Translations under genes and position numbers: made by a program | Notes under the pieces: generated by a model | The model's database searches: none | What the model was told of the DNA's origin: nothing | Seen by the model: the letters and a program-made list of their open reading frames with translations, nothing else | Source of the DNA: Rhizophagus irregularis | Taxonomy: Eukaryota | DNA length: 64,000 nucleotides | Direction: 5' to 3' | Assembly: GCF_026210795.1 (NCBI RefSeq) | Contig: NC_089434.1 | Span: 5,270,001-5,334,000, forward strand | Part shown: piece after piece, positions 3,376-62,037 of the stretch | How the letters are laid out: each line of letters begins with the position of its first letter | How positions within the stretch are numbered: position 1 is the stretch's first letter

Positions 3376-5150
3376 CTATAAAAAAAAACTGCCAAAACAA
3401 TAAACCTCTACTCCTATACAAAATTTGATTCGTTCGAGTCTTTCAAAGCTGAAGGGACTAAAGAGATCCTTTAAAGCACGCACCCGAGATACTGCTACAA
3501 AAAAAGGACATGCAGCAAACTCTTTCGTTCCAAGATCTATTTTAGCTTTTGGTAAGGCGAGTCCCTGACTTTTGTGCACAGTGATGGCCCAAGCAAGGCA
3601 AATTGGAAGTTGCCATCGTGAGCACACACGTCGGATTGGCACGATCGGGACAACTTCAGTCCCGTAATAGTTGGCCCCTTCGTAGTTATTGAAGCTAATA
3701 AAACTACTGTTGGAAGGTATGTGATCCTTGGTCATTAAAAATTATGTTCCAAACAGTTCTCATTGAGCCGTTAACTAACCCCAGCTGCTGTCTACAGATT
3801 TGCCGTTAACATGATACGTTGATACGTGCTAACAGTGAATCTTTTTGCCGTATCAAAATCGGCGTTTTTTGCCTCCCTGCCGCCAGAATGCACAGCGAGT
3901 ATCTTAGCTACTGGACGATTCAAGGATCTCCATTCTTGGTAGTATAAATATAGTATCTGAGATTCGGTTGCGTTCTTCTCTGGACTGTTTATATTCAAGT
4001 ATTTCCTAGTCTTCTATAGTGGATTCTCCATCGCGCATCCTTGAGAGAATCTCCCTAAATTTCTGTTCTGCGGAATCTCCAAATTGCCGCTGAATTGCTT
4101 CGAGCTTGTATACTTCCCGAAATTGTTTGTAAGCTGCGAAACCATCATTGGACAATGCATCTCCTTGAATGCCATCATTCATGGGAAGATCGAGCACGGG
4201 TGGAAGCTGACCAAAGTCCCCAAACAAAATAATCGATCGTCCACCAAAAGGTTCGTTGTTGTGCTCTGGAAAAGCTTGACGCAGTCCCGATCATATTTTT
4301 TTCGTCTATAATGATATATTTCACCCCTTCTAACCTTTGCTGTAATCGTTTTTAATCGTCCCCCATTTATGTCTAGGTTATTGTTACTATTACATATTGG
4401 TTTAGATAGTGCGGAGTTGACTGTCCTCCCTCTGATATTGAAGGCTGCAACTCCCATTGGTGCAAGTACAAGTAGTGGAGTCTTAGTCTCGTTGCCTGCC
4501 ATTTCGTGAAGCATGTTTCGGATCGCCATGATGAGGTATGATTTCCCTGTTCACGCTGTTCCCATGTAGTGGTTCGGTCTGGGCTTGTAAGCATGTTGTG
4601 ATAATGCAATTTTATTCTCCATTCAGGCTATCATAATTCGCAATGTCCACACACCGATTTTCATTTCCTTCGTCCCGCTCATCTCCAGTTGCCTGTTGCA
4701 AAAAATTATTAGCATCTGCGAGATCCGAATCATCATAATGTTGTTTGCCATCATTAAGCCAATCATGGTTTCGATCCATATCGCAGGCTCCCAGGTTAGA
4801 TGAACTCTCTATGGTTGTATTTGGTCCCATCTCCGCGAATTAGTATGTATTCGTCCTGATCGTCTTTTTTTTCCATTAGTTCTTCCTCCTCAGAAATTTC
4901 TTCTTCATTATCTACAGCAAGTCACTCGGGTCTTTGTTAATCTCTTCGATGAAACGATCATACAGTGTTGACCATCCGATATCGCCATTTCAGTCTGCTT
5001 GTTCGATATTTCTGTGCCGAACGTGAAAGAGGACCTTTACTCGGTCTCGACGTATGGGTGACGGACTCGAACTATATTTCTTTTTTGCATTTCTTCCAAT
5101 GACCGTTAACAAATTTGTGGTTAGACTCAAAGAGTGTGAAACTTGATATA
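3376..5150 (-). pseudogene. PIF1-family SF1B DNA helicase (Helitron-like helicase half), multiply frameshifted
   Basis: Ordered motifs across the ORF fragments: VLAPMGVAAFNIRGRTVNSAL, FGDFGQLPPV, RIMLTANL, QLPICLAWAITVHKSQGL, VAVSRVR. No HUH Rep domain is visible. Confidence 0.85.
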
Positions 5151-6670: not shown

Positions 6671-9267
6671 TCTAATAGATGAGATATATTATTATTAATA
6701 TGATAACCCACTTCAAATTTATAATAATTACTTGTCTATATCTAATAAAATAAAACATACGCGTGCGATCTTTTATAATCTTTGTTGACTTTGCTCTAAA
6801 CCGATTTTTGGTAACAAAAACTGAAAACAAAACTATGGCAACTAATTTTAATAACGACAAACATGAAGTGGTCATAAGTTTGAATATATAGAATGTAATG
6901 TTAGTCGGGTCATGTGGGTAGCGCGAAGTACTCAATTGCCACAAACTAAAATTATTTAGTTAAAAAGAGTGTTGGAATAAAATACCACGCGTATGTTTAT
7001 ACTGTAGCATGTTTAAAAATCCACTTATTGGTTTAATTTCACGTGACGTGATGATCAACATTCACTTTGTGAAGAGAGTAAACTTTAAAAATATTAATTA
7101 AAATTTTAATAATACAATACTTATGTTTTTAAATATTACCCAAGATTCTTTTTGTAATTCAAAATCGGTCTTAACTTTTGATTTATAACTATTAGTTTCT
7201 TCAAATTTGCAACTATCTTTATTCATTTCTTTTTTAATATCTGATTTTATTTGAATTTCTTCTAAATGCAATCTCTGATTATATGATTTTATTAGATTTA
7301 TTTAAGCATTTATAATAATATTTACACTTTAAACCTAATACCTGAAAACATTCTTCATAATATGTATGTCTATATATCAAAACTTCATCCTTCTTATTTG
7401 TTGAATTTCTGCAAAAGTTTTTATCACAAACCTTATTTTATTTAAAGGTATAGAAGAATGGTATTCAAGAGATAAAGTACTTAAAGAAAAACTTGTAAGA
7501 ATGGATGTAAAATAATAATAAGATTTTTTGTTTCTTTTTCCCTTCATTTTTTTCTACTTTTTTGTTATTTTTTATCTTATCAAAAAAGTTTAATAAAAAA
7601 AGAGCAGTTTTTTTAATTATTTTATTTAAATTTTTTTTTTTATATAAATAATCTCTTTTTAGTACAAATGATGTAATAAATAAATTTTTATTAATAATAA
7701 ATAAAATATTATATTTAAGGAATTTACTTTAAAAAACTTTTGCTATAGTATATCTTTATAAAATAAAGATTGTAAAAATTTTTAATAATATACTTATTAA
7801 ATATATTTAATTCATAATTTGCAAATAAAGTAGAAAACCCTATATCAAAAATTGGGTAATTATATAATAACGTAAATTCTGATATTATAGCAAACCAAAA
7901 TACTAATTGTTAAATATAATATAAAAATTAAGTTTATTTATTATTGCTATCAAGTTATGTTATTTGACTTACTTTTTGTTAAAAGTCTGGTAAATTTTTT
8001 GAGATTTAAGTATTATAAATAATTTATTTATAGACTTAAAAGTAAAAAATACTTTATTTTTAATGTTATAAATAATGGATTTTTACTTTTAAACTCACAG
8101 AAAAGTCATTTCTAATTATTGAAAATTTTACTGAACTTCTAGTAAAAAGTTAGCTAAATGGTATAATTTTATATTAATGGTTTTAACTTTTACATTATAT
8201 ATTTTAATTTGTTACATTTTCAGATTTTACATTATTATATATTACTATATATAACTTAACCCTAGTTTTTAATAATTAGATTTTTTACTTTTCACGCAAA
8301 TTACGAATTAAATTATTTTTTAAGATTTTGATGATGAAATAATTGATTGCTTACTAATAATACATATCAGACAAAAAAGAAAAAAAAAAATTTTATTATA
8401 ATTATCAATTATATCTTTAAAGCTTTTTTATCATATACTATAAAAGAAATATTGTATTACTATATTTATTAAATTTATTATTTCAAAAAAAAACTGTATA
8501 TCAGATATCTAGAGTTATTACAGTTTAATTTCAATATAATGAACCCATGATATAATGAATTCTCAACTTACTGAACTTTTTTTAAAAAACTAGTTTTATA
8601 GTATTTAAAAATATTTTGATATACTAATATCATACTGATAAACTTTATATAATGTATACTGAACTTTATTATTAGTTTACCACTTATTATAAAACATAAT
8701 AAAAAATTTTTTGATATACCAAATTTAGTCACATAATTTGCCAATTTCATCTAAAATTAATTAATTTTGGTCAGAATTAGAACTACCTAATTTTTTGCCT
8801 AAATTAATTAATGCCAAAACATCTTACACTGGTCAAATGATGAAGAATCGGTGTATTAAGAGCCAGTTAAGAATCGGGACCAATCAGGTTTCGGTTCTTA
8901 ACCGGCTCTTATTTTTTTTATCATTAAATAATCAGTATCCCGATAGGCCTATTGATTCTATTATATAAGAAGCCGATAGATTCTAAACGTATATCAAATT
9001 TGATCGGCCGATAATAAGTAACAAATTGATTACCTTCCGGATTTCCCGATGACTAATAAATAAACACCCGATCTGTCATGATCTGTCATTAATTTATAAA
9101 TAAGCATCGGTAAAACATCACACGTCCGATAATAATACTGATAGAACATTGATATTAGACGTGAGAAATTTAAAGGTTTAATAATAATTATTATATATTT
9201 ATTTATTTGTATATTTATAATATTCATAATATAAAACATGATTGATATTACAGTATTATTATAAATT

Positions 9268-12200
9268 TTAAATATGAAACTTTCTATTGATCGGTATTAC
9301 TGACACATATTTCCGGGTTTCTTTTCGTCCTATTGAAAAAGAACCTTCAACAAACCGACCCAGTATACTATGTACAGGATAATACAATCCCTGCTAAGAT
9401 CATAAAATTCTTTTTTCCATAGTTCTATATTGCACAAATTTTCATCGCCATTAATTGTGCAATGAAATCTAGTCTTGTGATTTTCTGCCGGAAGGTACCA
9501 CTTTACAAATGCTAGGGAATGATTTACAGAACCTTCCGGAAAATGTATAATATGTTCAAAATAAAATTGAACAATACCGGGATAAGTATCTTTAGTATTA
9601 TCATGGAGAAATTGGGATAATATTTTGGCCGATGTGACGTGCCTTTTAGAATACATTGACCCAAAAACTTCGGATCCAATTTTTAGTCGTCCATAAGTGT
9701 TCACTTTTGGTAATACCGGTATAGCAGAAGGAGCAGCATGGATATCTGATAGTGCTGCGAAATCTTTTCCATAGGCATTGCGGTAATATTCAACCAACAA
9801 ATCTAATACTTCTTTTGAAAGGTTGGTGTCTATCCTTTTAGGATTAAGAAAAGTACCTGGAAAAGGTTCCGAACCTCGTTCCGGCCATTTCTTCCACGTT
9901 TCTAGACATTGATAAAAATTCCCGGTAATCTATTCCATTAATTTCATCATGAATTACAAGACTGCCGGTAGTTTCTTTCGGTGTAATTAGTGTGATACAA
10001 GTCGATAAATGTTGATGGTCTTGGGCGCATGAAGAAAACTGATCAAGAAGAGAGTTGAATTGAATGGTTTTTAATAATTCTGGTTCGATTCTTCTATTAC
10101 TGCTATGATACGATCCTATAAATATAGACTATTTAATAAATTGATTTAATTATATTGATAAGTTCGGAAATCTGGAATTACCTAATAGACCGTTCATGCG
10201 TTCGTAACTGAAACACCAGAACGCGTATAATGGTCCATAGTCTAACGCACAATGGCAAATATGTAAGCATAAATGTAAATTCGGCGTAATTTTTTCTGCG
10301 CCGTAATTTTCTTCAATGAAAGCTTTGCCACTTAGAAGATTTTTATGAGCTTCTTCTAACCCATTCGTTGTTATAGATCTGCATACAAGAATATTGCATG
10401 CACGGACAAAATTGGCGAGTATCAATTTATCCGATTCTTGAAGCAGATCCCATGTTATGGAAGTGGCATAAATTAAGATAAAAGTCTTCCATTGATCACG
10501 GAAGAACAACTTTGAAAAGCCTTCTACCTGTAGCAATTTTGTAGGGAATTCTACCGATATCTGCTGGAACTTTTATTGCATTTGCCCTTTTTTGCATTGT
10601 TTCTAAATCTTTTTGTGTCAATCGGCCCTCCTCGATCCACAGTCTGGTCACGATCCACTTAGCAATACCCAAGAACAAACAATGCATTGGATCCACTGTG
10701 AGAAATCGCACTGAATCAAAGTACGGAAGTCGATACATTTCTGACCACCGTACTAAAGTATTATGGACGTGACTATTTCTAGCATCTTTAGTATTGCAAT
10801 TCAACCATTCTCGCGCATCCCTTCGAACCTGGTTGATATCTCTTTCGACAAACCATTCATCAATATCATCAAATCCGCCAAAATTCGGTTGATTTCGATC
10901 ATCATATTGAGCCTTTTTTAAGCATCTATGACAAGCCACTCGCGCAGAGATATGACCGCAGAGTTTTCTCGCGGCTGGAATATCACATGAGCAGCATATT
11001 ACTGCGGCTCGAATAGATTTTCCGGTAGAGCTTTCGTATGTTTTCGATAGTTCAATCCCATTCCATAACTCGATTAATTGATCGATGATGGGAGCTATAT
11101 AATGGTTTAGTTGATGTAAACTAGGCTCATTTGGCCCCGGAATTAAAGCCATTGTCAAAATATTTGATGGCTTGAATCTTTCATTTCGAGGCAGGTTACA
11201 TATTACACCATATAGAGCTCCTATACTATAAGTTGAATTATCGAATGGTTGGAACCAGTCGATATTTAACATGATGCCTAAGTGGCGGTCTGAGACATCT
11301 TTCCGGAAAAATGGTATATTTTGACGATGATCCTGAAAGGTTTTCCAGATCTTTCCGTCATAAATATCATTCAAAAATTGAGAATCGTTACGGTCCGCCC
11401 ATTTTCTACATAATTTCTCAAATCCTTTTCGATTATACATTAATTGTAATTGGTGTTTTAAACTAACAGTAGGGAACGTTAAAGAAGGTCGATAGATTGT
11501 TCCGTTAGTAACCGGAACTTTCTTAGCAAGTGTAGCATTGCACTTTTTTCTTTGATTTGCCATCGGATGATCCGGAAAATCTACATAGGTACAATGAATT
11601 GTGGCTGGAACTTGGTAAGGGTCGTTAGTTGATACTTCTGTTACATTATACAATTTGCAACACTTTTCACACGATGCGAATTTGACAATATGAGCACAGA
11701 CGCCAAGTTTTTTACGTGCCATATACAAAGATGTAGGAAAAGAATTGTACGTGTTTGCATCCAAAAGAACCAAAAGATATCTAAAAAATTTGACTAAAGA
11801 ATCGGTAGTGACATCGGATAACTTATATCTCTCTTGATATAATAAGATCCATAAAACAATCCAATGAAAGTCTTCAGTAAAATCAATGAAGGAGGCTTCT
11901 GGATCATCACCGTATGTATTTTCCGGTGCGTCAAACCAGCCGGATGAAGATTCATTTGGTATTTCTTCGATAGGATCAAAGTCATTATCAACTTGATCGT
12001 TTTCTTCATCATCAGCATCACTAGTATCATCATCTGAAATACTTTGTTCAATAACAACAATAGGGTATGATACATTCTTGGAATTTCCACTACCGATATG
12101 TTTTCGTTTATCTTTCGATTTGGCTTTTGATGATTTCGATTTTTTGGGAAGAAACGAATAATTTTCCTCATCAACAATAGGTTCATGATGACCATCATCT

Positions 12201-12478
12201 GAATTATGTGATTCTATTTCCATTGGATCATTCAAGAGGTCTACCGATGTATCTTGGTTTAGGTCATCAGATGAAACTTGATTTAAATCTATAATTTCTT
12301 CAATAACTCCTCTTGGTCTAATATCCCTTTTTAAACTATGACTATTTTTTGTACGTGGATCAACCATGTTACCTTTACATTTATTGCAATGACACGGAAC
12401 TTTATTTGATGTTTTCTGTTTAAAATTATAGGATTTCTTTACAAAGACAGCTTTTGTTCTTCGGTATTTTCTCGTCAT
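9268..12478 (-). CDS. CACTA/EnSpm Tnp2-family (Transposase_21-like) DDE transposase; 2 exons (12478-10182, 10115-9268) with several small frameshifts
   Basis: N-terminal CHCNKC..H; GIMLNIDWFQPF..S.G, NLPRNERF, CDIPAARKLCG, CHRC, DPMHCLFLG, YGPLYAFWCFSYERMNG; C-terminus VIPINRKFHI*. GT-AG intron at 10181-10116. Confidence 0.88.
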
Positions 12479-12638
12479 TGTAAATAATAATATAAAAAAA
12501 TTTTATTAAAAATGAATTTTCGGTTCTTCGATGAACGGATATATTAGTATGATTGATAATTGACATTGTTGACCATATTAGGTTACTATCAATTTATTGT
12601 ATTTATTGTATTTAAATCAATATAAGTTCCTTTATTTG

Positions 12639-16336: not shown

Positions 16337-17663
16337 CACTGGCCTACAAAAAGTATTCAGATTTTTTTTTTATTTATAAAATTTATATGTAAAATTTATA
16401 ATTTTATGTACATATAAAAAATTTTTTCGTACTTATTAATTGACAAATAAATTTTATTATATTAAAATATAAAATATAAAGTTATTATACGAAAAATATT
16501 ATAGCTAAAAAATTAATATTTAATATGGCCACCTTTGGCCTTAATTACTGCTTTAACCCGATTAGGCATACTTAAAATTAGGTTATGGCATGTTTCAATA
16601 GTGATTTTTCGCCATTCCTCTTGTACTGCCCAATTAACTTCTGTTTAGACTTAAACAAAGGCTTTCTTTTACGAACCTGATAATCCAAATAGTTCCACAG
16701 GTTTTCGATCGGGTTTAGATCAGGGCTCTGTGCCACCCAGTCTAAAATCGGAATACTATGCGTTCTCATCCACCAAACACTGTAAGTTGAAGTATGACAA
16801 AATGCTCCATCTTGTTGAAAAATGGAGTTAGGTAATTGTCAACCCATGGGATAAAATGGTTAGCCAGAATATTAACGTATTCATCAGAATCCATATTTCC
16901 CTCCACTACAACCAAAGGACCAACTCCATGCCAACCAAAACACCTCCAAAACATTACTGATCCTCCCCCAAACTTAACTGTAGGTTGAATACAATCTTTA
17001 TTGTATGTTTCTCCAGGACTTCTCCATACTCTTGCTCGACCATCTGATTGAAAAAGAGCAAATCTTGACTCATCTGACCATACCACTTGTTTCCACTCCT
17101 CTATCCAATTTTTTTTCTTTACACCATCTCAAACGGTCAGTTCGATGTTTTGCAGTCAAATGAAGTTTTTTTTGGACAGTATAACTTCCAAGACCTTCAC
17201 TATGAAGGTAACTTCTGACTGTATTATGGTGTAAAGTTGCGTCAAGACTGGTATTTAGCCTGTTTGTCACATCACCTAGAGGAGAAAACCGGTCAGTTCA
17301 GATGATACATTTTAAAGCTCGGGTATCACGTTCAGTGAGAACTTTTGGTCTTCCAGAACGTTTCTTAGGTTCTGTAGAACCTGTTTCTTTATACTTTTTT
17401 ATAATATCATTTACAGTACTGGTCGGAATACCAAACTGAGTAGAAATAACTCTTTGCCTGATACCACTAAGATATGCGCCAATAATTCGTTCCCAGTGGG
17501 TCTTTGAAACTTCTTTTCCACGCATTTAAAACTAGAAGAGGAGTGAAAAATAAATATTTTGTTATCTCCTTTATTTATATGTGCGATAGGGAGAAATCGC
17601 CGATTGTAACACAGATGCGCAAAATCACGTGATGAAAATCCGAATACTTTTTGTAGGCCAGTG
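16337..17663 (-). mobile_element. Tc1 (DD34E) DNA transposon, full length 1327 bp
   Basis: 29-bp TIRs CACTGGCCTACAAAAAGTATTC(A/G)GATTTT with 1 mismatch; TA TSD at 16335-16336 and 17664-17665. Confidence 0.95.
16513..17525 (-). pseudogene. Tc1 transposase, disrupted
   Basis: HTH plus RSGRPK linker, VWSDESRF, FQQDGA..H, SPDLNPIENLW with 34 residues between the second D and the E. In-frame TGA at ~17298 and several 1-bp frameshifts. Confidence 0.92.
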
Positions 17664-19035
17664 TATAATATATAGATTTACAATTTTTTTATAGTTTTTT
17701 TTTTAAATAACATTACATCAAATAATTTTATAATTCTTCTAGTTAAAAGGAATTTTCTGAAAAAAAAAAAGCCAACAGACTCTAATGATCTTCATTTTGT
17801 CATATAATGTAAATCAATTTTTATATATATTAATTATGTCGATCACTTTGATCACATAACTTTGTTAAGATTTTCCATTTTTAAAAAATCTTGGCGTGAG
17901 ACCTTATGCACTTAATGTACTATAAGAAACCTTATACTACGACTATTTTTGACTGCTCTACAATTTTCTTAATATATCAAAAAGGATTTAGAATGTCATT
18001 TTTTACTTTTATTTGTAACATATTATAGGGGTACGACATAACGCAGGTGCGTTAAAAAGCAAAACCCTATTATTTAATCTATTTGATTTCTAAAATAATA
18101 TGACTTCTTGTATAATTCTATTGCTTTCTCATGAAATAGATAAACATGTATTGAAAGAATACAGCAGATTACAAAGTATTATTAAAATTTAATTATTCAT
18201 CTTTAGATCATACTTAGAAAATATGAAAAATGGAAATGAATTTTTTCTTCTAAATTGTGTGTACCCAATTTTTCTCTAATTCTAACATATCATATGCTTT
18301 CATCGTTCAAGTTGGGAAGTAACTCATGTACACATTTTGAATGTTTCAAATGACTGATATTATTCTATTTGATTGAACGTATCAAAATTAGATTTTCATT
18401 ATTTAGAGAGTTACTTATATAAGAAGTTTATAACCATAAATGTTACCATGACGATCTCTATATTTAACCTTTTATGCCATTGAACTAGTGAGACGTTTCA
18501 TTGTTTGTTGGCGTATGCATGCAGCTATCGGTTGTGCCCACTTTTTAAAAGTATTACTATCATTTTCCTGATAATCTCATTCTGTTGCATATTTTTCTTT
18601 TTTTATAGAACGATTGAACTTCTTCTGAATTAATATTTGCACTAGAATTGGTATTTACAAAATTTGAAACTGAGCTGTAAAACTTAAATCTAATTTTTCA
18701 ACTCGGTATAAAAAATTTTACACGTATAAATTGAAGATAACGTGTGAATTTTTACATGATAAATTGGTTACATAAATAATGCTTGATTTTAAACCCTGCA
18801 CAAAATTTTTTTATTGTTGAACATATACATCTGCATTATGCATATCAAGTACAAACTTTATTAATTTTACTGTTTTTGTCCAAAAAATAAGTTCTTTTAT
18901 CGTTAAATGCATATTTTATTATGCTTGATATAAATGGTAATATTTAAATTCGTCATTTTTTTTTTTATAAAGGGCGCAACAAAAAAAAAAAAAAAAAATC
19001 GTAAATTTTTATAAATAAAAATTTATTCTCGTAAT

Positions 19036-22000
19036 ATGAGTAGCGAAAAAATTGAAACTCAGAATAATGATACTACATCAATAGAAATTTTAGATGATAA
19101 GGATGATATAAGAGAACTTAAGGGTAATATGCAAGAACTTGAGGATGAAATTGAAAACCACGAGAAATCAATTTACCGTATTTTAAAAGAAATTCCGGAG
19201 AAAGATGATCTTTGGAATGAAATTGAATACCACAAGAAATCAATTTACCGTATTTTCGTTCCTCAATATATGAATGATACTAGTTCAAATGATGATTATG
19301 TTGTTACTTATAGTTATGACCATGATTCATTCCTTGGATGGCCAATTAACATTGATGAAAAGAATAAACTGAATGAACTGCAACCTGATGTTTATGTTAA
19401 ACTTGTCCCACTCAACAATCTCTTACCATATTTAGACGATTTTGTACTATTAAGTAAAAAAATCATGTCACTTTATTTATATCGTAAACATTGTAAGTAT
19501 TTTATTTTTGATTCAAAAAATAAGTAAATTAATTTTATGATTTAATTAATAATAATTTATGTTGCAATTTTTAGGGCTTATTGATTTTAATAATGATCGT
19601 ACTGGTGATACCGGATTTCTTGAACTAGAAAATACTGTTAATTGTGTAGATTCAGATAATGGACATGATGGACGTGACACTATTGGATTTCTTCCTAATG
19701 GAGATTTAATTCAAGTATCGCTAATTAATAAAAAAATTTACAAGTACTGTTTAGAAAATAAACCAAAAAATAAAGGTTCTTGGAAATGTTCTCAAATTTA
19801 TGATCTAAAAATTCCCAAAAGTTTACGTGGTCAATATACTACCTTACGTAGTTCTATATGTCAAGAAAAGTTATTTCTAATTGTTAATGATCATAAAACA
19901 TTAATAATTCAAATTGATTTATCGAATATGACTTTTGAAAGACAATACATTTCAGAGGGATTCATACTTGATGTTTTTCTATGTAACTCAGATGGGGCTT
20001 CTTTTTATCGTAAACCAATAATAATGAATAAAAATCAAACGTTATTTGCGATAGCTGATGATTATACTTACATATTTTCAATGGAAAATGGAATGTTGAT
20101 TTTAAAATATAATTGTTAGTATTAATACATATACTATATTATTTTAATATTTTTTAATTTTTATATATTCTAATTATAATTTATTTTCGTAGATGGTGAA
20201 GAGAATTCTCCAGTTGAATTTATATCTTTGGAAGATAATTCCGAAAGATTAGTCATTAATCAACATTTCTCACTCGAACATAAACTTTTAGATCCTTATC
20301 AACCTTATTATGAAATTGATATTTCCCAAGATTTTAATAAAAAAAGTGTGATAACTAAATCAAACAAAAAAATTTGCATTGACAAAAATGGTAACGTTTG
20401 TATTAAAAATGGGTTAGAATTGAAACAATTAACAAACAAGAACATCTATAGGAATAGTATTTACTATACTTTATTTACTTTTAAGGTTATACAAAATATG
20501 CTTGACGATATCATCAAACAAGTGGAGATTAAAAAGGTTGCATCATCTAAAGAGTTTGTGTTAAAACATAACTTTAAAATTAATAATGAAGGTCTTTGTC
20601 AACTTTATCTTCGTAATAATTTTAATTCTGTTACTGATAATGTAATACCGAATATTGATTATTATAATGATGAGATTACACTTAGAAAATCAACTGGTAA
20701 AGAAATAAAGTATATTAAAGTTCCTCATATACTTTCATATGAACTATTAAACGACCAGAATTTGGTATTAATTAATATGAGAGGAATTGATATTTATTCA
20801 ATAAATGAGTTTGGGCTTAAACATCAATATTTTTGGCATAATGATGAATGGGATCGTATTTATAAAAAATTCATTAAAGATCATGGAAATAAATTTAATG
20901 CAAGTTTTATTGATAAATATTACAAGCCACTTTTTATAAATGTTTATAATAGTGAATTTAATGATTCAAAATATTTAATACCATTATCAAGATTAAACTG
21001 TAATGATGCGAAGGAAATAATCGAAGATTTTATAAATGATACAGTAGCATTATCAAGATTTGGATTAGAAATGTTGAAAATGGCAATTAGTGACAAAATT
21101 GATTATCAACTGATAAAACAATTAGCTACAGGTATTATAGATAATGAAATGGCAATTTCAAAATTTGGAACAGAAATTTTAAATATAGCATTTAAAGAAA
21201 ATTATCACGATGTTGTTTATCAAACCATTGATAAAATTATCAAATCAACTCAAGATTATTCCGAAACTTACATGACTTTTATTAGTTTATTCTTAAAAAA
21301 TTTATGTGAATATTACCCTGATTCCATAGTCAAATACATTTTAAGTACTTCTATTATATTATCTCCTTATTGCAATAAAATTAAAAATTCAAAAAATACA
21401 TCACTTTATTCATATTCAAAAAATATTTACGTTAAGGAATCAAATATGGATAATAATTATTTTAAGATTATATTATCATTTTTAAAAGAATTATGGATAC
21501 GGGAAGAAACACAAACAGTTAGTTTTATAGTTCCTTTTCCTCGTATTTGTGAATATAACGATAATCCTTGGAATAAATTTATATATGAACCGAAATCTAT
21601 TCTCTTTTGTAATATAGATGGTGATCATCTTTATAATTGGTGGAATTTTGCCGCAATTGTTGATTATAAGTGGAAAACTTTTGGATGGATTTATTATTAT
21701 TTGAATTGGTTCTTTTATACAATTTTTTACATTTGTTATTCATTAGCTTCTGCATTAGATCAAAATTCTATCCCTGATTCTTATTTTAAATTACTTTTTA
21801 TAATTTCCATTGTACTTGGTTCAATATTTTTAATTTTTGAAATTCGTCAATTTTTATGGAACACAAAACTTTATGTTAATGATGTATGGAATTTATTTGG
21901 TAAGTAATACTAATATTTATTTTAATTGCTTTATATTAAGAAAAATATATGATATATATATATATATATAACCTGATTTAATTTTTACTAATAGATATAG

Positions 22001-24018
22001 GGTCATATCTTTTACCAATTATAACCGCAATTTTATGGTTTATTAATAAAAGCCTACCTTCTTGGCTTACAGCAATATCTATTATATTAATAAGTTTTAA
22101 ATTTTTATTATTTTTCAGAGTAATTAAATCATTTGGAATTTATTTTGCCATAATAATTGGTGTTGCAAAAAAAGTTTTTCCATTCTTGATGCTCTTATTT
22201 TTTATTATACTTGGTTATGCTCAAGCATTTTTCATTATTCTAAAATCAACCAATGAAAATGATGATAATGATCCACAAAACCTAGCAACTAAATACGATT
22301 TTATTAATTCGGATGGAACTATTAATAATACAACAAAATTAATTCAAGAAACTGATTCAAATACGAATTTATTTAATTGGTTTCCAACTTCTCTTTTAGC
22401 CGTGTATAAAATCCTTACCGGTAATAATTTACTTTATTTATAAACCATTTTTTTTTTAAAAAAAAAAAAATACTAAATAATTTCTAATACAATTAATTAT
22501 AGGTGATTCTGGGTCTTTAGCATCATGGACTTATCGTGATCATCACACAATGACAGTTTTATTAGTTACCTTTACATTTTTCACAGTAATTTATCTTTTG
22601 AATTTATTTATTGGATTGCTCAATATAGCTATTGAAAAATATAATAAAGAAGAAGAATTTTTACTTCAAAAAGCAAAGGTAAATTTTTTTTTTGTTTCAG
22701 TCATATCTGGTAATTATATTAAATCTTTTCGTTAACTAACATTTATTTTATTTTATTTTTTTTTTTAAGATTATTATGGAAATTGAATTATTTTATATGT
22801 TTCCATGTTGGAGAAGCGATAAAAAATGGTTTCCAGATTGGATGTAAATGTTAATTTATTTATATTATAATTTCTCAGTTTTTGTATATATATTTTTATT
22901 AATATATTTTATTTAAATATTTTAGTTATTATGATGTACCTGTTACAAAAGTTCGTAAATTAATTAATGCAATTAATAATGATAAAGCTGTATTTGATTA
23001 TCCACCATTTATCAGTAAGAAATTGGAAGAGTTGGTAGTACTTACTAATGATAATAAAAAACAAAATAACGAAGAACATGATGATGAAGGAAACAAAAAT
23101 AATAAACTAGTGGAACAAAAAGAACCTACAAAAGAAGAGCTTATACAACAAAATAATCTACTTAAAAAACAAATAACTGATATTAACGATCTTGTTACTG
23201 AAGTTCGTAAATTAATTAATGCAATTGATAATAATAAAAAGCAAAGTAATGAAAAACATGTTAATAAAGAAAAACAATATAATAAACCAGAGAAGCAAAT
23301 AGAACAAACAAATGAAGACCTTACACAACAAAATAATGTACCTAATCAACAAACAGATGACCTCGATCCTTTTAGTACAGATGAATTCAATCCTTTTAAT
23401 TTAATTAAAAAGATTGAGGGTAAACAGTCTCTTCCTCCAACTATCATCGATAGTGTGAAAAAGTTAGCAGTAGAAGAACAAAATAAAAGATTATCAGAGA
23501 AGCAAATAGAACAAACAAATGAAGACCTTATACAACAAAATAATAAAGACCTTACACAACAAAATAATGTACCTAATCAACAAACAGATGACTTTGATCC
23601 TTTTAGTACAGATGAATTCAATCCTTTTAATTTAATTAAAAAGATTGAGGGTCAACAGTCTCTTCCTCCAACTATCATCGATAGTTTGAAAAAGTTAGCA
23701 GTAGAAGAACAAAATAAAAGATTATCAGAGAAGCAAATAGAACAAACAAAAGAAGACCTTACACAACAAAATAATGAAGATCTTATACAACAAAATAATG
23801 AAGACCTTATACAACAAAATAATGAAGACCTTATACAACAAAATAATGTACCTAATCAACAAACAGATGACTTCGATCCTTTTAGTACAGATGAATTCAA
23901 TCCTTTTAATTTAACTAAAAAGATTGAGAGTGAACAGTCTCTTTTTCCAACTATCATCGATAGTGTGAAAAAGTTAGCAATAGAAGAACAAAATAAAAGA
24001 TTGAAGGAGAAAAAGTAA
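19036..24018 (+). CDS. TRP-like cation channel, 7 exons, ~1490 aa, intact reading frame
   Basis: Exons 19036-19492, 19575-20114, 20193-21899, 21995-22420, 22503-22678, 22770-22843 and 22926-24018 splice in frame (4473 nt). Motifs AIVDYKWKTF, FEIRQF, VWNLFD, FLLFFR..FG.Y, FFTVIYLLNLFIGLLNIAI and QKAKIIMEIE match the 6TM Ion_trans/TRP-box region. Confidence 0.9.
23288..24000 (+). repeat. Coding tandem repeat: three 207-bp (69-aa) units containing 1, 2 and 4 nested 24-bp units
   Basis: Units start at 23288, 23495 and 23726. Each contains TDD(L/F)DPFSTDEFNPFNL; the nested unit is (N)EDL(I/T)QQN. Confidence 0.92.
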
Positions 24019-30969: not shown

Positions 30970-31210
30970 TGGAGATCTGTAAAATTAGCAGATTTCCACA
31001 TTTTTTATATGAATTTATGTGAAAGTCTATGATTTTGCAGATCTACACTTTTTAATTTTTACAAAATTTTGCAATAATCTGCGATTTTGCAGATTTCTGC
31101 TTTTTTTTATGTGAATTTATGTAAAAGTCTGCGATTTTGCAGATTTCTGCTTTTTTTTTATGTAAATTTTTGCAGAAATCTGCGATTTTGCAGATTTTTG
31201 CTTTTTTTTT
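30970..31210. repeat. ~50-bp tandem repeat (~5 copies) with palindromic core; probably a transposon subterminal array
   Basis: TCTGCGATTTTGCAGATTT at 31078, 31128 and 31179; degenerate copies at ~30977 and ~31027. Confidence 0.8.
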
Positions 31211-33237: not shown

Positions 33238-33522
33238 CCTTAATGTACAGTGGGGGTGTATGATATTAATGTACGAACTGGCCGGAGTTAACGTTAACGC
33301 TATCACGTGCAAGTGCATAACTCCTAAACTCGGGCCAGTTTGTACGTTAATATTGTACACCCCTACTGTACGTTAAGGACGCCCTCCTTAATGTACATTG
33401 AGAGTAACGTACAAACTGGCCGGAATTAACGTTAACGCTATCACGTGCAAGTGCATAACTCCTAAATTCAGGCCAGTTTGTACGTTAAAATTGTACATCC
33501 CCACTGTACGTTAAGGACGCCC
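33238..33522. repeat. Tandem pair of ~140-bp hairpin units, each with a CACGTG-containing spacer
   Basis: Unit 1 (33238-33378) has ~46-bp inverted arms CCTTAATGTACAGTGGGGGTGTA...AACTGGCC / GGCCAGTT...TACACCCCTACTGTACGTTAAGG. Unit 2 (33386-33516) has a deleted left arm. The spacer TTAACGTTAACGCTATCACGTGCAAGTGCATAACTCCTAAA is identical in both. Confidence 0.88.
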
Positions 33523-50500: not shown

Positions 50501-52222
50501 GGTTACCCGCTGAGACCCATATGCGAAAATAAAAATTTAAGATATACAGATTTCAGTTATATTATACCAGATTCCATATTTTTTTTTAATTTTTTTTTTT
50601 CAAAATATTATTGTTTAACAAAGTCTTTTCCCGCTGATTTTACCAAGTCCCATTTCTTGTGCTAGATGTGCTAGATATTGGATGACTACTTTAAGATTTC
50701 CACCGTTTACCCACGCTTGATCGGATGTAAAAATGAATCATTTTCAAAACTCATTTGATAAATTAAAATCAAAATTTTGTTCTATCCAAGTTTCGGGAAG
50801 AAATCATATTGTAACAGCACCCTTTAACAGAAATAAAAGTGCTACCTTTTTTTAATTAATCGGTCAACAGACAGATTCCCATCAGTTTCAAGTTGATTGT
50901 TAATCGCTCATCGGATATACCGGCTCAATTATACAAGCCAAACCCCTTTCAGTCTAATAGATCCAACATCGACAGAGACAATGCCCTCGAAATCAGTTTC
51001 TCTTAACGATACAGAACAAAGAACTAAATTCAATTTTTATGTAAAAAGCTGGCCTCCACAAAGGTCTACTAGAAACCCTACTTGCTAATCTTTCGGCATT
51101 ATAACCTTCGGATGCAAGTTTGATAGGTCCCATAACAAGAAAAATTAATGGTTCCATATAGAAATAGTCAACGCCAAACCAGTCAGCGTTTGGTATTCAT
51201 AGTTTACGGAAGTTAATTAATTATCTCACGTCCTAAAAAGGCTATCATATGACTTAATGACGAAAGTCGAACCCTTTCATATAGTGCAGAAGCTGGCTGA
51301 CAAACGACGTAACTAACACTAATATTTTAAGAGTTTCGGCGCCTGTTTTTCCAACCTTTTGAAAAAAATCTGAAGATCTCGGCAAGTCATATGAATTTAA
51401 TTGATAGGTCAGGTGAGATCGACACTCTAACAGACGGTCGGGGCTTGAAAGATATATCTGCGAGTTTAATAGTATCCTTTAGACTTTAGTATAGAATTTC
51501 CTTTCCCCAGTTGTATCTTTTTCTTTGTTTTCCAGTTTTGTGAATAAAATAATAATCTACGCTTAAATCAAAATCATTTAATAAAACAACTTGATAATAA
51601 AAGATTTTGAGGGACTAAAACAAGAAGATGCAGCAAGTTCTAAAGAACAAGATCCTATGAGGCTGTGACTTTGAATTAAACTCTTTCTCGTTTTTTTTAT
51701 ATTCTATGTTCGAAAGGTGATAATTACATAAAATTTCAGATAACCGGGAAAACGTTAATTTTTCATGTTAAAGAATCTGACAAAGATTGTACGATAAAAC
51801 GTTTCTATTTTTACTAATTAATTAAGACTATTTGAGACGATATACACTAAACAATCATTTCCATATTATATATGATAATATGATTGAATTCACTAATCAT
51901 ATCAACATATGATGACGCCAAAAGCTTATTATGTAAACGCAGTGCTATTTACGGTTGGATTAGTTGTTATTGTTTCCAAATATATGCTAGAGATTTTTTT
52001 GAAGAATGTCAATTATGTTTCAAACTTTCAATATCGGAGTTCTATTCCTATCTCCATCTTCATATTTACCAAATTAAGAGATAAAAAATTTCACACGAGC
52101 TCATATACTGCAATATAATTGGATTTCACTAAAAAGAGGATGAGCGGAACATAAGCATTTACCATGGGCCCCTTTTTCACAAAAAAAGGCTTATCATCAT
52201 TACGGTGATTTACTGTATATGC

Positions 52223-53035
52223 TATATAAACAGGTTAGGGCTTATTCACTCAAAATAATTTTGAACTTCTAGCAAAAAAAATATTTTAACATTAAATTAA
52301 TGCACATTATAAATTCTTCTAATCTTTCAACAACTCCTCTTCTTTCACAAGTAAGAAAAAGGATGAGATAGTTATGCTGATTATAACAAATTTAAATTTT
52401 GACTAACGTATTTTTATTTCTTAGATACATTTCAAACAAATTATACAAGTAAACTAGGTACAGTAATCGTTAATCTTATTCTGAATAGTCATCAATTTCA
52501 AAATTTCAAGTTTATTTTGAACTCATTCCTTTTATTAATTTTTTTAATCTAAAGTCATGCTCAAGAAGAAGGAGACATCAATCTGGCTGCCTCGATATAC
52601 AGTAGCCAGATTGATGAGCGGCATAAATAATATAATAACAATTATTACTCTACGTAATAATTGTTATTATATTAGTTATGCCGAAAGTGCAAATATCAAG
52701 GAGAAATAGATTCGGTATTTGATTGTTTACTTAAACTGACTTAAACTGATCCACAACTTATTTAGACTTATTTTATTTATTTCTCTTTTTAAGTTGCCTT
52801 AACAATGCTATAAAAATTGGAGAGGCAAGCTTCTCCGAGGTATATACGGCGTACGCGCCTGAATTTACTTCCACACTTATATACTTCGGAGAAGTTATTT
52901 ACGGCATACGGGCCTAATTTTACTTGTATACTTATTTTCAACACTTTTAACTTTTTATTTCTTTTATTATTACTATTGTATTATTTATTACCTTTGTATT
53001 ATTTATTAACTCAAATTGATATTGGAAAATAAAAT
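52223..53035 (+). ncRNA. Candidate spliced multi-hairpin non-coding RNA gene, copy A
   Basis: TATATAAACAGGTT at 52223. Introns 52351-52424 (GTAAG...GACTAAC...TAG) and 52458-52554. Hairpins at 52576-52616, 52619-52683 and 52828-52896. AATAAA at 53028. No expression evidence. Confidence 0.55.
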
Positions 53036-56420: not shown

Positions 56421-57575
56421 CAAAACAATCATCCTCTTCATGAAAGTAATGTATTTATTAATGAACAGCTTTTATGAGAGTAATAAAACTATTTCCTAAA
56501 ATCTTATTGTAGAGGGAATTAATGATCATATGCTTGTCCTGGGAATAAAATTGGTTTTCTCTCTTATCAAGAAAATAGAGTATGTTGCTAGAACATTCAG
56601 TGAGTAAAGACATGATTTTTTTTAAAAAAATAGGAAGAAAAATGTACAAAATTTGAGTTGACAGTTGACGCACGAGTCGTGATTGTTGATATCAAAGGTT
56701 GTGGCGTAAGAGACTAAGAGAACATGCCCATAGTTAGAATTTCGATGATGATGTGCTGTATGGCATATTCAACAATAATTAAAACTATATAATTCGATCA
56801 TAACTTAAACTTCAAATCCTGTTTCCATAGAACATAATATTAGGACACATAATATTAAGTACATTAAAAAAAACTTGAAGAAAAAAAAGATCTAACACAA
56901 CTTCTCTTACATTATTATTATCAAAATATGTATGAAATTTTGAGCCTGTTGTTATGATCGATAACACTAAAAACTCTTCCAACCAATCTTCTGGTGGGAG
57001 ACGACAACCAAAGAAAGCCAAGGTTACGACAGAACCTTATACGCTTCAAAAACCAGTTCAACCGTCTACGGCTAACTTGACGAAAGTATTGTTAAAGACT
57101 TATTTTGTTTTTAATCTGCAGTGGTGAATTTTTATAAAATTGGACAATTGATTATTAATATCGATGAAAACAGCTTGGTGAAATGATAAAATAATTAAAC
57201 TGTACGGTATAATTACAAGATTTAATTTTCGTCTTCACGGCCAATTCTCAATAAGACGTTCTTTGTCTTCTCGTATCTCGATATATAAATGCCTTCTATA
57301 TGTTACTGATGTTAATTTAATTTTTTACAAGATAATAAGGGTTGGATTGGTAAATACTCGAATATCATTGTTGGTTGTTGATTCAACATATCTAATACCA
57401 CAAAAAGAAAAGGCCATTAAGGAACCTTAATGTTAATACATAGATTGCAAGAAATTTACAAGAAAATATAAAAAGTATACGAAAATAGCCACTAACGTGT
57501 TGAATTATTAAACAAAAGTGATTTTTTTTTCAGCAATTGTTAAGAAGGAAGGACTACATCAAAAGATAAAAGTGC

Positions 57576-57669
57576 TTAGCCTTAGGAGAAATTTACCGCC
57601 CATTTTAAGCTGCAATCCCAAACAACTTGACTCTTAGAAAGCGTATCGTAGAGCACAATGATCAACCGG
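57576..57669 (-). rRNA. Orphan ~95-bp fragment of nuclear LSU (25-28S) rDNA, near D1; non-functional
   Basis: Minus strand reads GATACGCTTTCTAAGAGTCAAGTTGTTTGGGATTGCAGCTTAAAATGGGCGGTAAATTTCTCCTAAGGCTAA, matching the conserved fungal LSU segment GAGTCGAGTTGTTTGGGA.TGCAGCTC.AAATGGG.GGTAAATT.C..CTAA.GCTAA. Flanks are not rDNA. Confidence 0.88.
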
Positions 57670-58319
57670 AGCATAATTAACACCTAGAGTTATCCAGCTA
57701 AACGAGACTCAATGATACTCAAAGGTTTTTCTAACCAAAAATACTAAGAGAATGAGCTCGAAATGGTACATTAATTGAAAGCGACAATAAAAAAAAAAAG
57801 ATATAATGATTACTATACCTTTAAACCAAATATGTTTTCATAATTTTGCATTTTTTTTTTTATCTTCCAATACAAAAAGTTGTATTATTTTAGACAGAAA
57901 ATTCAATTAAGTAGATCTCCCACAGTTTTCCTACTTTTATAATAATATATTTCTACACACATAATGTATTTCTACATACAAACGTTCTGATTAGAGTCTT
58001 ATAATCATAATAAATAAACATTATTTATACTAGTCGAAATTATTAGAAGTATTTAGGTACAGCTACTTTACCAGAAGAACTTACGGCAAATATTAAAATC
58101 GTAATTGATAAAAAAGTTGTACGACCAAGTTCGCCCAAATTAGAAACTTGTTTGGAATTCATCTACAGGCAATCTCATCGATCTTTGATAAACCGGATTT
58201 GGCACTATTTCGGATTTTTCTTCTGGAACCAAAATCTATACTATATTAAAAAAATCTTGATCATATTATTTCGACAATCATTTAGACATTTTTTTTTTCT
58301 CCGTTTAAACTACTTTAGC

Positions 58320-59600
58320 ATGAGAAAAAACATAAAAAGAAATCTAAATTAACTCAAAAGAAAGAACTTTGTGAAAAAGCGACACAATATGGAATTTTTA
58401 CTAGTATAGTTTCTGATATTTTAAAAAGATCAGAACATTGGCTTTCCATTGATACTACCTTACCAAATGCAAATAATTTTCGAGTATTTATCCAGAAGTA
58501 ACGAGCATTTGGGTTGATCAGAAAATTTCAGGAAATTTAACTATTAATGGACCCATTATCCAACAGAGTGTGCTAATTTACTTGACATCAATAACTTTTC
58601 AGCATTTGCATGATGATTATATAACTTTAAACAGAGAAATAATTTACATACATTTAAATTTAGAGGAGAATCTGGCTGGTTTCCAATTGATGAATTTCTA
58701 CGAACGAGAACTGAATTACAAGAAATTTTTCGACTATGAGTTTAGAGACATTTGGAATTGTGATGAAACTGCGTTTAGGATCATGTAAAACAATAGCACA
58801 TGATCCTTTACTTTGTAAAAAACGTCCTAAAGAACGTGTTAGCATTCTGGCAACTTGTAATACTTCTGGTTAAAGGGATTGAAAAAAAATCTCTTTCTGT
58901 CTGATACTATTAGAATTCAAAAGCTTGGATGTTTCCACCTAATATAATATCACTTCTTCAACCATTAGATTAAAGTATTATTTATAGGTTAAAAACACAA
59001 TATCAAAAATTGCTATGTAATTAAGGCTATGATCCTTATGAAGAAGGTGATCCAATTCCACCTCCAATTGGAAAATAGTATATAAAAAAAACGATTTTTA
59101 ACAGTTGGCTAAAATTGGAATCCTTCCCAATAATAACATTCCCCGGAAAGACTTTTTTCCGCGATATTAAAATTTTCAAATACTTATAAGACATTTAGAT
59201 TGTCGTATATTATTATCATATATGAGCGACATATGTATGTGCGAAAATCCCTGTCATCTCGGTAGAAACTTCACTTCGTGAATTAAAAAATCTTAAAAGA
59301 ATTAAATTTCATAGTCGTCTGGAGAAAAAACTTTGGATAATAAATGTCATGGAAGATTCTAAATGTTCTTCAAATAATTCTGACTGTGAAGAAGATATTA
59401 GACATGAATTACAATTATTGATTGATATTGATTGATGAGTTAGAGTTCACAGATCCTTTATCTGTAAATGACTATGAAATTTCTACAATAGTTGCATCAG
59501 ATAACATTGAAAATGTAATCAAATATCGATATATTCAACAAAAAGAAATGAAAAATTTAATAATTAAATTGAAAAAAGGATCTTTTTAATAATATAAACA
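58320..59600 (+). pseudogene. Decayed pogo/Tigger (CENP-B HTH + DDE_1) transposase
   Basis: QKKELCEK, QYGI.TS.VSDILK, DIWNCDETAF, KRPKERVSILATCNTSG, NSKAWM and PPNITSLLQPLD, in order, with many indels. Confidence 0.85.
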
Positions 59601-59819
59601 GAATAAAGCAAAGTGAATTAACCATATTAGTTTTATTTTTTATAAAAAAAAATGAATATAAATTGAATATGTACGAAAGTTTTATTTTCTTATAAAAAAA
59701 AAATGAATAATTGAATATGTATGATACAAGGTTTATTTTTTATAAAAAAAAATGAATAATTGAATATGTTACAAAGTTCTAATATCATCTATTCTAATCT
59801 AAATCTAAAATCTAATAAA

Positions 59820-60744
59820 ATCTAATAAAAATATTTAAAATTATAATAATATCAATCATTCTGTATCGTAAAGCAAACTATTTTATTTTCTACGAGAATA
59901 TCATTTTGTTTTTCCCTACGGTACAAAATGAATGAATTTGGTGGGCGAGCAGTTCTTTGCTCGTCTCACCTACCTCCACTGTTCAGTACCGTAAAGCAAA
60001 ATTCTAAATAAATAAATCTAAATAACCTTTTGTTTTGCTTTACGGTACCAAATCAAGGCCGAATGGTTTTTTACCTGTTTTACTAGAGTTTATTGGTAGG
60101 TATTGTTTGAAACCGTTTCTTGAACCGGTTCAAACATATCATAAGGAAATCTAGATAGATATCCTTATATTGTGAAGTTTGATATATATCATATGACATA
60201 TAATCATCACATGATATATATTCATAATATGAAATTCCATATTGGATCATCATTAAAAATAAGTTGTTCTGACAAAGGATTTGCATAAAAGCAAAAGGAA
60301 TTGTCGATCAGCGAATTTTTTGCAGAACTTTTGATGTCAAATGATGATGGAATTTCAACTGTAAAATAATTAAAAAAAAAAATTAGCATAAATTGAAATT
60401 TGAAAATGATTAATTCATAACAGGTTTAATGATTAAATATATACCTATATAATAATTCTATAATAATTTCGTTAATACTTAATGTATATTACAATTTTAT
60501 TTTTAAACCTGTTATCAAAAAATTTAAAAAATACGTTAGTTAAAAATCAAAATTAGTTATAACTTATAATGATAAATATAATTTTATCCATTTTCTTACC
60601 AGGAAGAACTTGTAAAAAAAGTATATGAAAAAGATTAGAAAAATGTGTATAATGTGTAATAAGTTTGATATAAAATTATAGATAGGTTTTATTTTAGTAT
60701 AGGTTTTTTTAATGACAGTAGATAAAACCCAACCTGTTTATATA
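59820..60744 (-). ncRNA. Candidate spliced multi-hairpin non-coding RNA gene, copy C
   Basis: TATATAAACAGGTT on the minus strand from 60744. Introns 60599-60509 (GTAAG...AACTAAC...CAG) and 60444-60359. The last exon is an almost continuous run of hairpins from 60357 to 59856. Confidence 0.6.
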
Positions 60745-61097
60745 ACAAATGAATTGACTGCGATAAACTATTTTTAGAATCTCTTTGTGAAAGGGGGGAC
60801 TTATATCCGGTATAATCTTTTTATCTTTTTAGAAAACAAGCTTGTGTGAAGCTAAATATGGAAATAGGATTAGGATAAACCTGGAGAAATGACTGTAGAA
60901 CTTTAACATTGATGAATAAAAAAAAAGTAAAAAATCGGCGTCTCTATTTTTTTCAAAAAAAAATTTCTTTAAAATTCCAAGTAAATTTACTAGAGCGAGA
61001 TATGGTCGCATGTAAAGAAATTATACTCATCTTTAAACTTGATTGAATTCCAACTCAAGTTATAGAAATTGAAGTTATCTTTGATTACATGTGATAT

Positions 61098-61392
61098 CAC
61101 TGGTCAAAAACCAATATATCGGGTAGCAGATATGTATCAGATATGTACCCGATATGTGTAGTATTAATGCAGAAAATCGGGTACCTGATATGTGTAAGAT
61201 ATATGTAAATATATATATCATATACATATCGGGTACCGATATGTATATGATATGTAAATGATATGTAGACGATATATATATTTACACATATCTTATACAT
61301 ATCGGGTACCCGATTTTCTGCATTAATACTACACATATTGGGTACATATCTGATACATATCTGCTACCCGATATATTGGTTTTTGACCAGTG
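61098..61392. mobile_element. Fold-back MITE with CACTG termini (CACTA superfamily), 295 bp
   Basis: Near-perfect inverted arms of >100 bp starting CACTGGTCAAAAACCAATATATCGGGTAGCAG; 3-bp TSD TAT at 61095-61097 and 61393-61395. Confidence 0.93.
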
Positions 61393-61549
61393 TATCGTTT
61401 GCAATAATAATTATTTGATACAATTAATATAAATAATAAGTACCTCATCAGTCTAACGACATATTTTTAGAAACAACTTTTAGTTGTAGTCACGTGATTA
61501 TGATTATCTATCAATATAATAAATATGGAAATGATAATACCAAAGTGTC

Positions 61550-62037
61550 AGGGGTCGTGGCTGACCTAGTGCACTGGCATGGTGTACCCCTCCTATGATT
61601 GTCTAAGACAGGAATGGAGGACGCAGGTTCGATCTGTCCAGCCAACGGATGCTCTATGAATTATACTGCGTGGGCCTATACCATAGGCCTAGAAGGTGTA
61701 GATCGTAGCCCTAGTGGTGGGAAAGTGCATAGATCATGGTATCACACTGACTTCGGTCACAATCGTGGTATCAACCAATGGTAGACTACCTCAGAAGTCG
61801 ACACCCAGGGGGAGTAATCCTATCCTGGGCTACCAATCTGTTCTTTGGTTTCTTTGGGATTGGTGTTGCAATTGGGACCCACCCTTGTTTCGTTTTTTGT
61901 ACCAGAGTGACGCCGTCCTCGGACGGTTTGATTATAGCATAGTATTAGATAGCGTTTGACTTTTGTTTTATCTTTTGTTTTTGTCTATCTTTCTGTAATC
62001 TAGTTCACGTGGATTTAAAAATAAAAATAAAAATAAA
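61550..62037 (+). mobile_element. tRNA-derived SINE-like retroposon, ~488 bp
   Basis: Perfect 16-bp TSD ATAATACCAAAGTGTC at 61534-61549 and 62038-62053. A-box-like TGGCTGACCTAG at ~61558 and B-box GGTTCGATC at 61626. GC-rich body, T-rich 3' region and a (TAAAAA)n tail. Confidence 0.85.

Follow-up and report, generated by a model that had tools for sequence, protein, structure and literature searches.

Twin paralogous hairpins in the last exon of an apparently unannotated spliced RNA of Rhizophagus irregularis

Two hairpins of the size of miRNA precursors lie one behind the other on the minus strand of a 64,000-nucleotide stretch of Rhizophagus irregularis DNA (the whole of which is referred to here as the window), and the question they raise is whether they are a source of small RNAs or structure of another kind. 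The original prediction took them for a miRNA family with a conserved guide arm and named a tiny transposon as the main alternative. The analysis described here confirms the twin hairpins and places them in a spliced RNA that appears to be unannotated; by the features tested, the locus belongs neither to the scaffold_28 milRNA cluster of this fungus nor to an Rfam family, nor is it a TA-bounded MITE. With its paralogous, guide-sized hairpins this spliced RNA makes a concrete small-RNA candidate in R. irregularis, and the sections below weigh what it may do.

The hairpins and their duplication

Hairpin 1 (59982-60052, minus strand) has a 20-bp stem, in which we count 18 Watson-Crick and 2 G-U pairs, closed by a loop of 31 nt. 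Past a one-base bulge the stem is predicted to extend at its base to 60058/59977, adding 5 positions (3 Watson-Crick pairs, 1 G-U pair and 1 mismatch). Hairpin 2 (59856-59931, minus strand) has an imperfect stem of about 23 bp with 3 G-U pairs, 2 mismatches and 1 bulge; its first 22 positions comprise 17 Watson-Crick pairs, 3 G-U pairs, 1 C-A and 1 A-G, after which the bulge follows. A small GC-rich hairpin (59940-59970, minus strand) sits between the two. The pair counts agree with the original prediction for both stems, and the separating hairpin is present as described. Hairpin 1 folds with -25.3 kcal/mol (z -6.4), and its extended form reaches -29.7 kcal/mol on the minus strand versus -23.6 kcal/mol on the plus strand. 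Hairpin 2 folds with -19.6 kcal/mol (z -4.8), the two strands being roughly equal, and for the GC-rich hairpin the plus strand is somewhat favored (z -4.1, versus -3.0 on the minus strand). The 197 nt that span both hairpins give -64 kcal/mol (z = -8.3), and none of 200 shuffles was equally stable.

Fold-backs as such are not rare within the window. It holds 22 perfect inverted repeats of at least 12 bp with loops of at most 60 nt, while three shuffles gave 4, 1 and 4. Four of the 22 reach at least 16 bp, hairpin 1 among them, and more than 12 of the 80-nt tiles elsewhere in the window fold as well as or better than it does. Other strong hairpins, several of them more stable than hairpins 1 and 2, lie at 52576-52674, 52828-52896, 33333-33421, 31121-31200 and 8857-8911. 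A large fold-back at 61098-61392, with 133-nt arms that are 95% complementary, a spacer of 29 nt and 11-nt subrepeats, is a stronger candidate for a hairpin RNA or a fold-back element than the twin hairpins.

Hairpins 1 and 2 are duplicates set 123-124 nt apart. Their alignment scores 43 and the best of the other 1,514 tiles in the window 39, a lead that is modest but upholds the claim that they are paralogous. The 3' arms are identical at 17 of 19 positions, including the first 11 nt, again as claimed, and the 5' arms at 15 of 19, a difference that is not significant (Fisher p=0.66). The homology does not stop at the 5' arm but reaches the loop (29 of 36 nt alike over this stretch), and when the loop halves are compared the 5' half retains 10 of 16 positions and the 3' half, which alone has diverged, 5 of 16. 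Thus the proposal that 5' arms and loops are divergent holds for the 3' half of the loop and is not borne out for the 5' arms and the 5' half. The larger claim built upon it, that a conserved guide beside a drifting star arm and loop marks a miRNA family, is not supported, since the arms are not statistically distinguishable and the homology enters the loop. No further copy of the hairpin was found elsewhere in the window; partial arm matches near 51000 and 43990 were considered as extra copies and rejected, as neither forms a hairpin.

Five stem pairs vary between the copies, 1 being compensatory, 2 having changed to G-U and 2 being broken in hairpin 2 relative to hairpin 1, and the changes that weaken hairpin 2 lie mostly on the 5' arm (4 versus 2). 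Six of 7 transitions favor the transcribed strand, a G-U bias that is not significant (p=0.125). The stem structure thus gives no strong sign of selection.

Two readings of the locus draw on these changes. Inert structure, in which a repeat-derived lncRNA carries hairpins that are decaying fold-back remnants and yields no small RNA of consequence, is doubtful but deserves serious weight: the broken pairs of hairpin 2 are in its favor, whereas the compensatory pair, the near-perfect stem of hairpin 1 and the greater stability of the extended form on the transcribed strand (by 6 kcal/mol) speak against it. A bona fide milRNA family, in which a spliced two-hairpin precursor would be cut precisely by a Dicer-like enzyme into one U-starting guide per hairpin with fungal or plant mRNAs as targets, seems to us rather unlikely. 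The likeness of the 3' arms and the bias of the weakening changes towards the 5' arm are what this reading would lead one to expect, but the asymmetry of the arms does not reach significance.

The spliced host RNA

The RNA that carries the hairpins is transcribed from the minus strand and spliced, and its last exon holds both of them. When 24 public runs were checked with 31 sampled words of 59780-60130, 19 contained all 31 words, one metatranscriptome run contained 42% of them and runs X21-X24, which were set aside, contained next to none. The 20 word-positive runs come from 10 studies, one of which is flagged as a possible source, and most of their RNA labels are guessed. Contigs of four runs (X1, X9, X18 and X20) were aligned to 57900-61050, and difference-free contigs cover 59772-60277 in X1, 59728-60360 in X9, 59673-60358 in X18 and 59967-60183 in X20, a run recorded as RNA whose contig covers hairpin 1 only. 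Both hairpins are intact in assembled contigs, a point that favors inert structure.

On the minus strand the contigs and their splice ends define the observed part of exon 1 (60600-60620, from an X18 contig, the true 5' end possibly lying beyond it), intron 1 (60509-60599; 91 nt, GT...AG), exon 2 (60445-60508; 64 nt), intron 2 (60359-60444; 86 nt, GT...AG) and a last exon (59673-60358, from difference-free contigs, with an approximate 3' end) that holds all three hairpins. Intron 2 is skipped in contigs of X1 and X18, two of the four runs, while intron 1 is skipped in one X18 contig only, with 23 letters on the short side. X18 is labeled DNA with a question mark, yet its contigs skip both introns. 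Read on the minus strand, both gaps begin with GT and end with AG, which makes this the transcribed strand, as had been proposed. All three hairpins are predicted to fold within the spliced-transcript model, most pair probabilities being at least 0.9. Two canonical introns and a presence across many studies are more than inert structure would lead one to expect.

The RNA appears to run out in a 49-nt tandem repeat (59629-59778, minus strand, 3.1 copies) with AATAAA at 59737, 59686 and 59637, inside which three contigs end (at 59772, 59728 and 59673). Since contigs cannot show true ends or levels, we put this repeat forward as the likely polyadenylation zone. Full-text searches with the arm strings and topic searches found no description of the locus, which subscription papers or supplements may list by coordinates; the arm strings matched unrelated papers only, as judged from the listing, and the accessible portions of PMC7082362, PMC11075540 and PMC9860192 hold nothing on it.

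The modeled transcript's first AUG opens its longest and only sizeable open reading frame, of 67 codons (60083-60286, minus strand), which is probably not a gene. This frame admits a further explanation, a small-peptide mRNA in which the frame is translated and the hairpins, which lie outside it and 30-230 nt past its stop, would serve the stability or transport of the mRNA from its 3' UTR. We regard this as very unlikely. The use of the first AUG, the position of the hairpins and the fact that just 7 of 500 shuffles reach 67 codons agree with it, but a comparison with 5.8 billion proteins (36-118 aa only) and with 1.84 billion representatives brought up no relative, and the product belongs to no Pfam family. 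In addition, a similar piece of another transcript (matching 60206-60260) appears, from its loose ends and by eye, to be without 20 nt inside the frame and to diverge before the AUG, and the first AUG is that of the modeled transcript, whose true 5' end may lie further upstream. The spliced RNA, which holds no recognizable coding gene, is therefore read as non-coding, and the small peptide is kept as a minor alternative.

Comparison with RNA families gave no match at the Rfam gathering score. Seven weak Rfam matches (E 0.7-4.9, including mir-154, MIR7696 and mir-553) fall 25-64 bits below threshold and were dismissed as chance, and no tRNA was found. An H/ACA snoRNA was rejected, the RNA being by eye without an ANANNA hinge, an ACA tail and a pocket, and so was a Helitron-type end at the GC-rich hairpin, after which by eye no CTRR follows. 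All 15 loci returned by a metagenome scan for hairpin 1 were unrelated (terminator-like or palindromic, 35-60% GC, with no BLAST match to 57500-62000), and all 11 loci of a viral scan were chance matches, none of which pairs the arm into a similar hairpin.

Recurring pieces and the transposon context

Pieces of the RNA recur in other contigs of the same runs (24 of 48 pieces are listed). Among the matches listed, the stretches of the RNA that are matched at 84-91% are 59881-59949 (3 runs), 59917-59964 (2 runs), 60009-60053 (1 run), 60021/60030-60072 (2 runs), 60206-60260 (3 runs) and 60574-60662 (3 runs, part in X20), which amount to four to five pieces set between unrelated flanks. The look-alikes of the hairpin region cover a 5' arm, at 84-90%, and none of those listed reaches a 3' arm, which at 20 nt may be too short to align; this counts against a milRNA family with that reservation. 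With the exception of 60009-60053, those listed over the hairpins run 25-41 nt past the outer TA before passing into unrelated sequence. In 3 of 4 runs the look-alike of 59881-59949 carries the letters of hairpin 1 at 59913 and 59916, with which the 3' arm of hairpin 2 would form better pairs, and the weak pairs of hairpin 2 at these positions therefore look derived. In the loose end of the same look-alike we recognize, by eye, a 9-nt complement of the loop's 5' half, which suggests a longer ancestral stem.

The start of the hairpin RNA likewise appears to share its sequence with another transcript: 60574-60662 matches contigs of 1.7-2.0 kb from X1, X9 and X18 (part in X20) at about 90%, across the first splice donor. 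Overall the RNA gives the impression of having been put together from segments that other transcripts also contain. This agrees with a repeat origin, and it offers natural candidate targets.

About 300 nt beyond hairpin 2, with the 49-nt tandem repeat in between, lies a broken transposase relic of the pogo/Tigger type (plus strand, approximate limits 58300-59560). Its DDE_1 domain (PF03184) is recognized at about 58908-59045 with E=1.4e-4 and 21.9 bits, against a cut-off of 22; further motifs spotted by eye we take to be those of pogo/Tigger. Contigs of the four aligned runs leave 57900-59595, and with it the relic, bare, which was not counted as evidence. Both hairpins contain TA-CCGTA ... 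TACG(G/A)-TA, and CCGTA begins Tc2-type repeats. With the adjoining relic, this raises the alternative that a tiny TA-flanked, CCGTA-ended Tc2/pogo MITE inserted twice, independently and by chance, within one transcript. However, pairing continues outside the TA at 8 of 8 positions in one hairpin and 5 of 5 in the other (about 7e-4 and 1e-2 by chance), and the two copies share their flanks outside the TA with each other and with the look-alikes, those listed for 59881-59949, 59917-59964 and 60021/60030-60072 running on for 25-41 nt. Nor does the far end of the relic offer a matching terminal repeat (best 13/20, null 13-15) or the window a further copy. The MITE alternative raised in the original prediction is not borne out as stated, given the pairing and the look-alikes that pass the TA; two separate TA-bounded insertions are unlikely, and the coincidence as a whole strikes us as barely credible. 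The hairpins may instead originate from some larger fold-back element. A target-site duplication of 4-10 nt was not found beyond chance-level 4-mers, and no element boundary identifies a parent repeat; a repeat origin is nevertheless supported, since fold-backs are common, the pogo relic is 300 nt off and pieces of the RNA recur at 84-91%.

Elsewhere in the window, a 668-codon open frame (10496-12502, minus strand) matches Transposase_21 (tnp2) with E=5.8e-18 and is followed by further long frames (9330-10572, minus strand), which together look like a fairly intact CACTA-type element. We presume that 3376-4550 (minus strand) is a fragment of a PIF1-type helicase and that 16766-17128 (minus strand), which has no Pfam match, is a fragment of a Tc1-type transposase. 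An ion-transport channel gene (19015-24018, plus strand), which we take to be TRP-like, belongs to an expanded Rhizophagus family and has a repetitive C-terminal exon; a channel-protein ORF of 575 residues in the window shares 100% identity with RirG_076060 of R. irregularis, 99-100% with two more proteins of this species and 83% with a protein of R. clarus, which places the window in R. irregularis, a mycorrhizal fungus.

Small-RNA evidence and related systems

The locus has several of the features by which milRNAs are recognized. Its hairpins provide a guide-sized duplex with few mismatches, the precursor is single-stranded and comes from the hairpin strand (two minus-strand GT-AG introns, contigs covering the hairpins), and the hairpins are neither a known structural RNA nor coding. 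That the strand is right and the host RNA spliced and apparently non-coding is in favor of a milRNA family, and so are the resemblance of the duplex geometry to published precursors and the occurrence of clustered paralogues in R. irregularis (7 loci in 8.3 kb, in the part of PMC6399891 available). The rule of PMC9757828 also excludes loci that overlap a TE, a point on which the look-alike pieces in other transcripts bear.

The arms are absent from the published lists searched. They match none of the 10 ShortStack milRNA loci described for R. irregularis in the available sections of PMC6399891 (precursors in supplement 8 of PMC9757828), and neither the core of the 3' arm nor either 5' arm core occurs among the fungal sequences bound to Lotus AGO1 that fill five FASTA files in the accessible supplements of PMC13106029 (7,176 rows, about 3,588 sequences). 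Known milRNA loci 338 and 340 do occur in those supplements, which is a point for inert structure. The string GGTACCG occurs at 4 places in file 6 of the same paper, and the 2 inspected are both unrelated. No match to the arms was obtained in the target table of PMC11982788 or, in either direction, in the target tables of the accessible part of PMC6399891. As a side observation on these sources, RisRNA23 in supplement 7 of PMC13106029 is the first 21 nt of the mature milRNA of Locus_340 in Table 1 of PMC6399891, as those parts of the two papers give them.

Each list searched had been filtered, for binding to plant AGO1, for predicted targets or by ShortStack, and none represents the fungal small-RNA pool, so that the absence argues against an abundant or exported guide and not against low-level processing in the fungus; to that extent it also weakens the case for inert structure. 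Small-RNA sequences are given neither in the available supplements of PMC8647823 nor in the 2,131-locus table of PMC6399891, and blanks there are uninformative. Presence in published lists serves as a proxy for the defining read pattern (a precise, replicated guide and star of 20-24 nt with 2-nt overhangs), and as the arms are absent from them, the locus cannot be filed as a milRNA.

The reading that we prefer, tentatively and as possible rather than probable, is that of a spliced lncRNA derived from repeats, in which the tandem hairpins would be young and likely weak Dicer substrates and their small RNAs would silence look-alike fungal transcripts. It builds on direct observations: the hairpins and their duplicate nature, both GT-AG introns, the contigs over both hairpins and the look-alike contigs. 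The locus would be transcribed by Pol II and polyadenylated in the 49-nt repeats, and its hairpins would be a tandem duplicate left by a fold-back repeat. A Dicer-like enzyme would cut the stems of 20-25 bp into RNAs of 21-24 nt, at a low level or imprecisely; these might then be taken up by a fungal Argonaute and silence the look-alike transcripts by pairing with them. Since a hairpin yields both orientations, one arm would match the look-alike transcripts whichever strand of them is read. A stem of 20 bp is short for Dicer, which counts against this account, as do the absence of either arm from the lists searched, the non-significant G-U bias and the missing boundary of a parent repeat. In its favor, published milRNA precursors similarly appear to have a basal duplex of 20-25 bp under a long loop. 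It is also the default route, because in R. irregularis most small-RNA loci are found within TEs or close to them: 49% come from TEs, and TEs together with unannotated TE-near regions account for most (available part of PMC8647823).

A more specific possibility, that of an unannotated milRNA family with a spliced, polyadenylated two-hairpin precursor that arose by recent inverted duplication and whose guides silence related fungal transcripts of the same runs, is in our judgment unlikely. If precise guides are made, the locus adds a milRNA family with possible fungal targets and would present milRNA birth in progress in an early-diverging fungus, together with an exon-intron map of the precursor, of a kind that we did not find described in literature searches. 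If they are not, it is an ordinary repeat-derived lncRNA, as expected in the R. irregularis genome.

The nearest published parallel is the milRNA cluster on scaffold_28 (Locus_338-345) of Silvestri et al. (2019), which in the accessible part of PMC6399891 consists, in the same species, of clustered paralogous hairpins on one strand, with a long loop above a basal duplex of about 20-25 bp. The precursors of that cluster measure 90-113 nt from duplex to duplex, whereas the twin hairpins measure about 70-76 nt, and it has abundant reads, while none are known for the twin-hairpin locus. The cluster also shares a loop motif (7 of 7 rows, by eye) and related 5p mature arms; the twin hairpins lack this motif by eye, have no sequence match to the cluster, and their arm motifs are absent from the available files of the paper. 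The scaffold_28 family keeps its loop motif while its mature arms differ, and a conserved arm with a drifting loop is therefore not the known pattern of this fungus.

Young plant MIRNA genes arise from inverted duplications or MITEs. The twin hairpins resemble them in the fold-back, in a similarity to other transcripts that extends beyond a guide-sized stretch and in the signs of a longer ancestral stem, and differ in that the analysis turned up no small RNA, parent element or target gene for them.

Like the TE-linked and unannotated loci among the 3,067 small-RNA loci of Dallaire et al. (2021; PMC8647823, in part), the twin-hairpin locus is unannotated, expressed and beside a TE relic, and unannotated expressed regions near TEs are, in the same part of that paper, the commonest source of small RNAs in R. 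irregularis. The TE-derived lncRNAs of Blumeria hordei, a repeat-rich biotroph (PMC10648671, in part), are similarly long non-coding RNAs beside and antisense to a TE; their number in that fungus fits inert structure, but the twin-hairpin RNA has hairpins of its own and seems to stop short of the transposase relic. The cross-kingdom small RNAs Rir2216 (PMC11982788) and RisRNA8, RisRNA11, RisRNA15 and RisRNA23 (PMC13106029) come from the same species, and several are intergenic; in the accessible parts of these papers R. irregularis small RNAs are reported to silence host genes and promote colonization. In contrast, the twin hairpins have no sequence match in the supplements available, and nothing at them points to a plant target. 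If the twin-hairpin locus works, it would do so like a fungal hairpin-RNA or proto-milRNA locus.
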